Positions 42,308 through 44,677 of a stretch of DNA of 64,000 nucleotides are shown here, one piece after another; positions within the stretch are counted from its first letter, which is position 1; each line of letters opens with the position of its first letter. Source of the stretch: Escherichia coli. GTDB taxonomy: Bacteria > Pseudomonadota > Gammaproteobacteria > Enterobacterales > Enterobacteriaceae. Made by a program: the position numbers and the translations under genes. The stretch lies in assembly GCF_030013595.1 (NCBI RefSeq), contig NZ_CP122768.1. The stretch is one strand, 5' to 3'. The notes beneath the pieces are model-generated. The model worked only from the letters and a program-made list of their open reading frames with translations. It searched no databases and was not told the DNA's origin.

Positions 42308-44677
42308 ATGAAAAAACGTATCCCCACTCTCCTGGCCACCATGATTGCCACCGCCCTTTATAGTCAACAGGGACTGGCAGCCGACCTCGCCTCACAGTGC
42401 ATGTTGGGCGTGCCAAGCTATGACCGTCCTCTGGTACAGGGCGATACCAATGACTTACCCGTGACTATCAATGCTGACCACGCGAAAGGGGACTACCCGG
42501 ATGACGCCGTGTTTACTGGCAGCGTGGATATCATGCAGGGTAACAGCCGTCTGCAGGCCGACGAAGTGCAGCTCCATCAAAAAGAGGCACCAGGACAACC
42601 GGAGCCGGTACGTACCGTTGATGCGCTCGGTAATGTCCATTACGACGATAACCAGGTGATCCTCAAAGGGCCGAAAGGCTGGGCGAATCTGAACACCAAA
42701 GATACCAATGTCTGGGAAGGTGATTACCAGATGGTGGGTCGTCAGGGCCGCGGTAAAGCGGACCTGATGAAACAACGTGGCGAAAACCGCTATACCATTC
42801 TGGATAACGGTAGCTTTACCTCCTGTCTGCCGGGTTCTGACACCTGGAGCGTGGTAGGTAGCGAAATTATTCATGACCGCGAAGAACAAGTTGCGGAGAT
42901 CTGGAACGCCCGCTTTAAGGTGGGTCCGGTACCGATCTTTTATAGCCCCTATTTGCAGTTGCCGGTGGGTGACAAACGTCGCTCTGGTTTCTTGATCCCG
43001 AACGCCAAGTACACCACCACCAACTACTTTGAGTTCTACCTGCCATATTACTGGAACATCGCGCCAAATATGGATGCCACCATCACGCCGCATTATATGC
43101 ATCGTCGTGGCAATATCATGTGGGAGAACGAATTCCGCTACCTCTCCCAGGCGGGCGCTGGCTTGATGGAACTGGACTATCTGCCTTCAGATAAAGTCTA
43201 TGAAGATGAACACCCGAACGATGACAGTTCACGTCGTTGGTTATTCTACTGGAACCACTCCGGGGTCATGGATCAGGTGTGGCGTTTCAACGTCGACTAC
43301 ACCAAGGTCAGCGATCCTAGCTACTTCAATGATTTCGATAACAAGTACGGTTCCAGTACTGACGGCTACGCAACGCAAAAATTCAGCGTTGGCTATGCGG
43401 TGCAAAACTTCAATGCCACCGTTTCAACCAAGCAGTTCCAGGTCTTCAGCGAGCAGAACACCAGTAGCTACTCGGCAGAGCCGCAGTTAGACGTTAACTA
43501 CTACCAGAATGATGTTGGTCCGTTTGATACGCGTATTTACGGCCAGGCAGTGCACTTTGTTAACACCAGAGACGACATGCCTGAAGCAACCCGTGTTCAC
43601 CTGGAACCGACCATCAATTTGCCGCTCTCTAATAACTGGGGCAGCATCAATACCGAAGCGAAGTTGCTGGCAACTCATTATCAGCAAACTAATCTTGACT
43701 GGTATAACAGCAATCCACAAAACAATAAGTTGGCAGATTCTGTTAACCGTGTAATGCCGCAATTTAAAGTTGACGGTAAAATGGTCTTCGAACGTGATAT
43801 GAATCTGCTGGCACCGGGCTTTACCCAAACGCTGGAACCGCGCGCGCAGTATTTGTACGTGCCGTATCGCGATCAGAGCGATATCTACAACTACGACTCT
43901 GCCTTATTGCAATCCGATTATTCGGGCTTGTTCCGGGACCGGACTTACGGCGGTCTTGACCGTATTGCCTCCGCTAACCAGGTGACGACCGGTGTCACAT
44001 CTCGCGTATATGATGATGCTGCCGTTGAACGTTTTAATATTTCCGTTGGTCAAATCGACTATTTCACGGAGTCTCGCACTGGCGATGACAACATAACATG
44101 GGAGAATGACGACAAAACGGGATCACTGGTGTGGGCAGGCGACACCTACTGGCGTATCTCCGAGCGTTGGGGATTGCGTGGCGGGATTCAGTACGACACT
44201 CGCCTGGATAACGTGGCGACCAGTAGTTCTAGTATTGAGTATCGCCGAGATGAAGACCGTCTGGTGCAGCTGAACTACCGTTACGCCAGCCCGGAATATA
44301 TTCAGGCTACACTGCCAAGAGACAGTAGAGATAAACGTTGGAATGCCCCTCAGTACAAAGATGGTATTTCGCAGGTAGGTGCCGTCGCCAGCTGGCCAAT
44401 TGCCGATCGTTGGTCAATTGTTGGGGCCTACTACTACGACACCAATGCGAACAAGCAAGCCGACTCTATGTTAGGTGTGCAATACAGCTCCTGCTGCTAT
44501 GCAATTCGCGTCGGTTACGAGCGGAAGCTGAACGGTTGGGATAACGATAAACAACATGCGGTATATGACAACGCAATCGGCTTTAACATCGAACTTCGCG
44601 GCCTGAGCTCCAACTATGGTCTGGGTACGCAAGAGATGCTGAGTTCGAACATTCTGCCGTATCAAAACACTTTGTGA
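42308..44677 (+). CDS. lptD: LPS assembly outer-membrane protein LptD (Imp/OstA)
   Basis: 789-aa ORF with signal peptide [24 protein letters not shown]; upstream of surA. Confidence 0.97.

Follow-up and report, generated by a model that had tools for sequence, protein, structure and literature searches.

How does an essential outer-membrane protein that has been described as highly conserved, and as heavily constrained as a phage target, come to carry a lengthened and partly replaced surface? The question is raised by lptD in a 64,000-nt stretch of Escherichia coli DNA (assembly GCF_030013595.1, contig NZ_CP122768.1), hereafter called the window, whose LptD had been noted in the initial annotation as longer than the K-12 protein, with two divergent segments that would lie in surface-exposed loops. 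Alignment with K-12 LptD and mapping onto structures bore this out, and the result was neither identity with K-12 nor a set of differences confined to the signal peptide. The window gene combines a near-K-12 E. coli backbone with two short, very old patches, whose replacements and insertions are centred on extracellular loops (EL) 7 and 11. Judging from sequence comparison, we give a probability of roughly 60% to the reading that these patches represent a functional, ancient and recombination-shuffled polymorphism of receptor loops, which would confer phage resistance with lipopolysaccharide (LPS) export left intact. The recombinant-patch structure and the phage-docking role of EL11 are additions to what had been noted initially.

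Two divergent patches in a K-12-like lptD

The open reading frame (ORF) under study unambiguously encodes LptD. On the NCBIfam LptD equivalog NF002997 (cut-off 683) it scored 1373.9 bits, with residues 1-789 covering profile positions 1-781 of 783, and both parts of the two-domain layout were recovered by Pfam, namely the N-terminal LptA-like beta-jellyroll (LptD_N, PF03968, residues 53-194, 87 bits) and the C-terminal barrel domain (LptD, PF04453, residues 309-702, 391 bits). The gene is flanked by djlA on the minus strand upstream and by surA-pdxA on the plus strand downstream, and the gene order djlA / lptD-surA-pdxA-rsmA-apaG-apaH is kept as in K-12. The four conserved cysteines that form the interdomain disulfides of LptD (C31, C173, C724 and C725 in K-12) are all present, as C31, C173, C729 and C730, and occupy invariant columns in an alignment of 46 sequences. 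The window lptD is thus a full-length allele with an intact frame and no visible defect, encoding the essential barrel of the LPS translocon. Since LptD is essential and the allele occurs in 107 viable sequenced strains, we infer that LPS insertion together with LptE is retained. In these respects it is an ordinary core gene, correctly annotated, with a moderately interesting allele.

The window protein was compared with LptD of K-12 MG1655 (784 aa) by global alignment with MAFFT, and HMMER alignments to solved E. coli and Shigella LptD chains agreed with it, also within the indel-bearing EL11. The results confirmed a length of 789 aa, the five additional residues being P470 (one codon) and DKRW at D675-W678 (four codons). 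Residues 1-468 are identical to K-12, and none of the 21 replacements falls in the signal peptide. Both segments singled out by the initial annotation indeed differ from K-12; they were located at residues 467-482 (K-12 counterpart NSR-NTTKLDESVNRV) and at residues 669-689 (K-12 counterpart LPKYYS----TAEQYKNGISQ), so that the K-12 forms of EL7 (SR-NTTKLDE) and EL11 (PKYYS----TAEQYKN) are both replaced by other sequence. In EL11, the replaced stretch corresponds to K-12 positions 670-680, with 8 of the 12 aligned residues exchanged and four inserted. Window residue D672 aligns with K-12 Tyr671, the codon having changed from TAC to GAC. The periplasmic turn reads NLLAPGF in the window versus EMLAPGY in K-12, and single changes (K-12 numbering) are S531A, I566V and N639S, together with Y583D and R774S, which are private to this strain. 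EL4 and EL5 are unchanged.

The strand and loop register was taken from an AlphaFold2 (AF2) model, whose confidence (predicted local distance difference test, pLDDT) is 49.9 overall and 50-82 in the barrel, and was cross-checked against published anchors and solved structures. The modelled barrel superposes on solved LptD barrels (4RHB, 9I92 and 5IXM) with TM-scores of 0.70-0.73, and its register fits the published anchors for EL4 (330-352), beta10 (with 394-397) and EL11 (657/658-678), as well as the extracellular rim residues P483/F485 and Y516/P518/R520. The published limits of EL11 are K-12 residues ~657-678 (PMC12685063, PMC13035648). The 26-stranded barrel fold itself is certain in practice, because the window protein is ~97% identical over its full length to solved E. 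coli and Shigella chains (phmmer, 1774 bits). According to the AF2 register, window residues 468-478 belong to EL7, 670-686 to EL11 and A532 to EL8, and V567 and S640 lie in barrel strands. The initial expectation, namely variation in the exposed loops of this essential outer-membrane protein, is therefore supported, the quoted segments mapping to EL7 and EL11. Not every change fits: the model places N499, L500 and F505 in the periplasmic turn that joins beta14 to beta15, and a few isolated changes occur in strands, in EL8 and in the C-terminal tail.

At the nucleotide level, the djlA-lptD-surA region is nearly undiverged from K-12 except at ~43,700-44,400. Synonymous and non-synonymous divergence (dS and dN) from K-12, calculated per segment by the Nei-Gojobori method, resolved this interval into two patches around a K-12-like middle (Table 1), and the single recombinant block of ~700 bp indicated by a first profile was accordingly rejected. 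Codons 1-455 carry seven synonymous and no replacement differences, and dS returns to 0.021 over codons 715-789. Within the patches, dS lies near the level between E. coli and Citrobacter or Salmonella for lptD (0.8-1.2) and above that between E. coli and E. whittamii in the 5' half of the gene (0.51). In the loop cores (residues 468-478 and 670-686), 22 of 33 changes are replacements, versus 2 of 38 in the other patch sequence (Fisher p = 3e-8). The proportion of differing synonymous sites (pS) is 0.65-0.91 in the loop cores versus 0.39 in the patch flanks, from which it follows that the divergence is centred on the loops and fades outward.

A third, smaller peak was observed at 43868-43930 (codons 521-541, start of EL8), inside patch a, where identity to K-12 drops to 80% over 60 nt. 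Nearly all of its changes are synonymous; S531A is the sole replacement, and no loop replacement accompanies it.

Table 1. Features of lptD in the window (window coordinates; residues in window numbering unless K-12 is stated; dS and dN relative to K-12)
Feature	Position	Strand	Basis or value
lptD coding sequence, 789 codons and stop	42308..44677	+	ORF, NCBIfam, Pfam, synteny
5' part, codons 1-455: signal peptide, periplasmic beta-jellyroll, strands to ~beta13	42308..43672	+	dS 0.024
Divergent patch a, codons 456-545: EL7, beta14, periplasmic turn, beta15, start of EL8	43673..43942	+	dS 0.675, dN 0.080
EL7 core, residues 468-478, including inserted codon P470 (43715-43717)	43709..43741	+	alignment, loop mapping
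Periplasmic turn beta14-beta15, residues 498-505; N499, L500, F505 for K-12 E498, M499, Y504	43799..43822	+	
K-12-like middle, codons 546-629, parting the patches; holds private Y584D	43943..44194	+	dS 0.052
Codon 584 GAC (Asp), private; K-12 Y583, extracellular end of beta17	44057..44059	+	44057 T>G
Divergent patch b, codons 630-714: beta20, beta21, EL11, beta22, beta23	44195..44449	+	dS 0.641, dN 0.067
EL11 core, residues 670-686; D672 (44321-44323), 12-nt DKRW insertion (44330-44341)	44315..44365	+	alignment
Codon 779 AGT (Ser), private; K-12 R774, C-terminal tail	44642..44644	+	44642 C>A

Loop types in E. coli and in other genera

To place the allele among its relatives, the two patches were searched in 5,425 complete E. 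coli genomes carrying lptD, and the matches were sorted into identity bands. The EL11 patch was found at ≥95% nucleotide identity in 107 genomes, 5,312 others falling in the 80-90% band, which corresponds to the 12-nt-shorter K-12 type, and six elsewhere. The EL7 patch likewise reached ≥95% in 107 genomes, with 72 more at 90-95%. In the reciprocal census with the K-12 EL11 segment, 5,296 genomes matched at ≥95% and 112 at 80-90%. The identity bands are bimodal: EL11 of lptD comes in two discrete forms, the commoner of which is very well conserved.

The 789-aa haplotype thus accounts for ~2.0% of complete E. coli genomes, and it occurs in several genomic backgrounds, carriers varying in local gene content (the espY1 islet, ccdAB and a DUF4291 gene) and differing by 0.7-2% in the flanks; strain 1190, JNE21-009 (O166:H15) and ZF34 are among them. 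The common 789-aa protein is RefSeq WP_000746146.1, found on at least 1000 contigs. Among themselves, carriers show a dS of 0.01-0.05 within the block, similar to that in the rest of the gene, which indicates that the allele is old in E. coli and not the product of a recent sweep. The two patches are also separable, because E. coli strain 20 and SCU-301 combine the EL7 variant with a short EL11 in a 785-aa protein.

Rarer lptD variants were seen alongside these types. E. coli E62 (lptD at 4057-6384 of its retrieved locus L088, 775 aa) has a 9-residue deletion in EL11, YIQATLPKY, which includes Y671; in Z1323PEC0008 (lptD at 1123-3465 of locus L092, 780 aa), four residues are missing from the N-terminal edge of EL7; and Escherichia sp. 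MOD1-EC7003 carries Y671N. All three resemble laboratory phage-resistance mutations.

Outside E. coli, the two loops have different relatives. The EL7 core shares 96.5% nucleotide identity with E. whittamii and Escherichia sp. MOD1-EC7003 versus 72% with K-12, which points to an EL7 allele class shared between Escherichia species. The 785-aa alleles of strain 20, SCU-301, E. whittamii and MOD1-EC7003 all have the same EL7, NPQNNKLAD, with a core of 93-96.5% nucleotide identity, but their EL11 is of the short K-12 type and their turn reads EMLAPGY, so that the turn replacements are specific to the 789-aa haplotype. In SCU-301 and E. whittamii, lptD has also diverged in the 5' half (dS 0.4-0.5).

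The long form of EL11 was found in Citrobacter sp. Awk 4, Enterobacter cloacae DSM 26481, E. asburiae, E. soli and E. wuhouensis, with the four-residue insertion at the same place and the motif P-[RK]-[ND]-[SN]-x-D-x-x-W-[NT]-x-x-Q-Y-K-[DE]-G. In these genomes, the EL11 core is 75-80% identical in nucleotides to that of the window and patch b ~79%, the remaining protein is 80-90% identical, and EL7 differs, so that the likeness in EL11 is one of type only. Congeners of these long-form Citrobacter and Enterobacter have a short EL11. This distribution suggests that the same EL11 dimorphism exists in other genera. The long EL11 was absent from all Escherichia species representatives retrieved, a set without E. 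albertii, E. fergusonii, E. marmotae and E. ruysiae. The scan of species-representative genomes gave no close nucleotide match; the best were Escherichia sp. MOD1-EC7003 (90.4%) and K-12 (89.8%), followed by Citrobacter and Salmonella at ~79-81%. Two metagenome scans with degenerate EL11 patterns gave no match, and a protein search with the EL11 segment returned short fragments only, one of which (P0020) led to the long EL11 of Citrobacter sp. Awk 4.

Proposed origin and maintenance of the loop types

LptD serves as the terminal receptor of small siphophages, including Rtp, several BASEL phages, OzMSK and JNUWD. In the cryo-electron microscopy structure of the Oekolampad receptor-binding protein on LptDE, the polar contacts are mainly with EL3-5 and EL11, and Y671N alone abolishes both co-purification of the receptor-binding protein and infection (PMC12685063). 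Resistance has been obtained through EL11 deletion, duplication of T667-Y678 and Y671N, in no case with an outer-membrane defect. Furthermore, Y671D was found in the JNUWD-resistant mutant M21, and OzMSK is blocked by an engineered loop-11 deletion. Because EL11 is the main docking loop of LptD-dependent siphophages (Rtp, Oekolampad, OzMSK), and in the window allele has Asp in place of Tyr671, 8 of the 12 aligned residues replaced and four added, the 789-aa allele is predicted most likely to stop the adsorption of phages tuned to the common EL11, with LPS export kept.

We propose that the EL7 and EL11 variants would be alternative loop types that arose long ago. Loop cassettes may have been carried between lineages, and trimmed, by homologous recombination (gene conversion), which would leave divergence peaks centred on the loops, and phage-driven, frequency-dependent selection could account for the persistence of the allele at low frequency. 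Phages have probably shaped the loop polymorphism of lptD.

Several points weigh against such a phage-maintained polymorphism. No donor lineage was found among the species-representative genomes, in the metagenome scans or in the protein search, and no phage host-range data were found for carriers of the 789-aa allele. In the JNUWD-resistant mutant, Y671D co-occurred with D336Y and D352Y. The role of EL7 is less clear, since this loop lies outside the experimental Oekolampad interface and was seen only in a low-confidence AF3 model for OzMSK. The confidence of our own structural model is low as well, and the three replacements in the periplasmic turn are explained by neither phage nor antibody pressure. 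A dN/dS above 1 in the loop cores is not demonstrable, the synonymous sites being saturated there, and for the same reason relaxed constraint on dispensable loops could give the same pattern. Finally, a frequency of 2% suits neutral persistence as well as balancing selection.

A first alternative is a neutral explanation, in which EL7 and EL11 are dispensable and drift, the patches being old recombination relics from a diverged Escherichia-like lineage that stand at ~2% by chance and make no difference to phage sensitivity of any weight in nature. Deletion of either L7 or L11 left growth and the minimum inhibitory concentrations of vancomycin and rifampicin at wild-type levels (Storek et al.), in agreement with dispensability, and the missing demonstration of positive selection, the low allele frequency and the changes in the periplasmic turn, for which no external selective agent is obvious, would also be expected under neutrality. 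However, the K-12-type EL11 is very strongly conserved across its 5,296 genomes, which speaks against free drift within an allele class, and the variation is discrete (two types and rare deletions) rather than continuous. Moreover, Tyr671, where single substitutions abolish phage binding, is among the changed positions, and the divergence peaks on the loops and fades outward as expected if the loops were the maintained target. We regard neutrality as rather unlikely.

A second alternative keeps selection but changes its agent, in that host antibodies or other surface-binding agents, and not phages, would drive the EL7 and EL11 types; these loops would be immunodominant, and a change of loop type would let cells escape antibodies already present. 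L7 and L11 are accessible to antibodies, monoclonal antibodies having been mapped to L6/L7 and L11, and the binding of E. coli-specific antibodies depends on L3, L7 or L13; antigenic variation would thus account for EL7 better than the Oekolampad interface does. On the other side, less than 1% of the anti-LptD antibodies were able to bind cells whose LPS core was intact, and growth was inhibited by none of them (Storek et al.), which suggests that antibody pressure on LptD is weak in smooth strains, and direct experimental selection at EL11 and Y671 has so far been shown only for phages. This explanation appears improbable.

The long EL11 of Citrobacter sp. Awk 4 and four Enterobacter, with the same insertion site and motif, would also fit a recent horizontal import into E. 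coli from one of these genera, all the more as the EL11 core is slightly nearer to E. cloacae (80%) than to K-12 (72.5%). Every sampled long-form carrier, however, is too distant in the core and in patch b, the patch flanks are nearer to Escherichia (~85%), and the divergence among E. coli carriers places the block long within the species. Recent import from any sampled taxon was rejected on the 75-80% nucleotide identity, and we consider recent import in general very improbable. Lastly, there is a negligible chance that errors of sequencing or assembly produced the additional residues or that the gene is a degenerating pseudogene, because the frame is intact and full length, the haplotype recurs at ≥95% identity in 107 complete genomes and on at least 1000 contigs, and two submitter accessions as well as RefSeq hold the exact protein with D584 and S779; a doubt of this kind attaches only to the two private single-nucleotide polymorphisms (SNPs), which are unique to the strain, in a window whose ccdA is also one nucleotide shorter than that of the nearest relative.

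A bolder form of the preferred reading, namely that an ancient EL11/EL7 polymorphism extends across Escherichia, Enterobacter and Citrobacter and is maintained by siphophages, that carriers of the 789-aa allele would be resistant to the Rtp/Oekolampad-type phages studied on K-12 without cost to LPS export, that phages specialised on the long form exist unrecognised, and that Y584D and R779S might be a further adaptive step, is speculative and can be offered only tentatively.

A discrete natural allele with a rewritten main phage-docking loop would have practical consequences. Because LptD is essential, surface-exposed and usually called highly conserved, it is pursued as a target of antibodies, peptide drugs, vaccines and "phage steering". 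If the receptor-loop reading is true, roughly one E. coli strain in 50 may by nature be insensitive to the LptD-dependent phages characterised on K-12, the lptD allele type would become a variable for tools that predict host range or receptor use, and reagents directed at L7 or L11 epitopes will miss some strains. The 789-aa allele would offer a simple, testable example of how a receptor polymorphism can last in an essential protein, and the idea that LptD is an invariant target needs to be qualified.

Private substitutions, neighbouring features and known systems

The window allele differs from the common 789-aa allele by Y584D and R779S. Every other carrier and every outgroup has Tyr and Arg at these nearly invariant positions, both columns are ≥90% conserved in 46 Enterobacteriaceae sequences, and neither substitution was present in any of the 5,425 complete genomes searched. 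The exact window protein is recorded as WP_282870122.1 in RefSeq and as WHG73654.1 and MDM4991635.1 by submitters, on two contigs. Relative to the nearest relative, HCP5S3_I2, a BLAST-based comparison gave 16 SNPs in ~48.7 kb; polarisation with strain 1190 assigned five SNPs to the window, two of them in lptD, a gene that covers 4.9% of the region (binomial p ~0.02, uncorrected). An apparent SNP at 35204 was rejected as an artefact of the target-site duplication of an insertion sequence (IS). From the alternation pattern of beta17, the side chain of Y583 is probably membrane-facing. K-12 R774 adjoins Ser775, which lies ~10 A from Asn345 of EL4 in the closed state (PMC12685063). Our literature search found nothing on Y583 or R774; Y584D and R779S may be adaptive changes, mildly deleterious ones or errors.

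Further features were observed elsewhere in the window. The polB gene (DNA polymerase II, 32329-36018) is interrupted at 33877-35201 by an IS4-family element of ~1.33 kb, which encodes a 402-aa transposase (ORF 33984-35192) and has a near-perfect direct repeat of 13 bp on its two sides; HCP5S3_I2 and strain 1190 have an uninterrupted polB. Between apaH and folA, at ~49055-49605, lies a ccdAB module that K-12 and E62 do not have there. At ~49513, the antitoxin gene ccdA has a 1-nt deletion relative to HCP5S3_I2 (GGGT-GCGC versus GGGTGGCGC), which reflects a genuine frameshift or else a mistake in assembly, and ccdB has an internal stop in strains 1190 and JNE21-009. The type III secretion system effector genes espY1 (~40182-40943) and espY2 flank the region, and an indel of ~14-15 nt separates the window from HCP5S3_I2 at ~40296 in espY1. 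At 21908-23946 of its retrieved locus L093, HCP5S3_I2 has an IS2 between espY2 and thiB, which the window does not have. The rluA-djlA islet varies among carriers, holding espY1 or a pentapeptide-repeat gene, or being absent.

Compared with the solved LptD of E. coli K-12 and Shigella flexneri (784 aa; PDB 4RHB, 4Q35, 9KN3 and 9I9Z), the window has the same gene at the same locus, with the same domains and cysteines. The 789-aa allele is already in databases; as a natural polymorphism of a phage-docking loop it is undiscussed in the literature as far as we found, and no description of a natural EL11 dimorphism was found in the searchable literature. Phage-resistant lptD alleles from the laboratory include delta(Y658-Y678)::H and delta(L394-V396)::Y (Maffei 2021), as well as Y671N, D352Y and duplications of T667-Y678 and of T385-Q393 (PNAS 2025). 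The window allele shares with these mutants a hit in EL11, the exchange of Tyr671 for Asp or Asn, a change in EL11 length and an essential protein that still functions. The laboratory mutants are single-step, phage-selected changes in a K-12 or B background, whereas the window allele is natural, ancient and multi-residue, is linked to an alternative EL7, and leaves the other resistance hotspots, EL4 and EL5, as they are in K-12.

Loop polymorphism in outer-membrane proteins that serve as phage receptors is well known, and the case of LptD is unsurprising in principle. In OmpC, OmpA, FhuA, BtuB and LamB, variation confined to loops on a conserved barrel has been spread by recombination, and the lptD alleles show the same general phenomenon. 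The difference is that LptD is essential.

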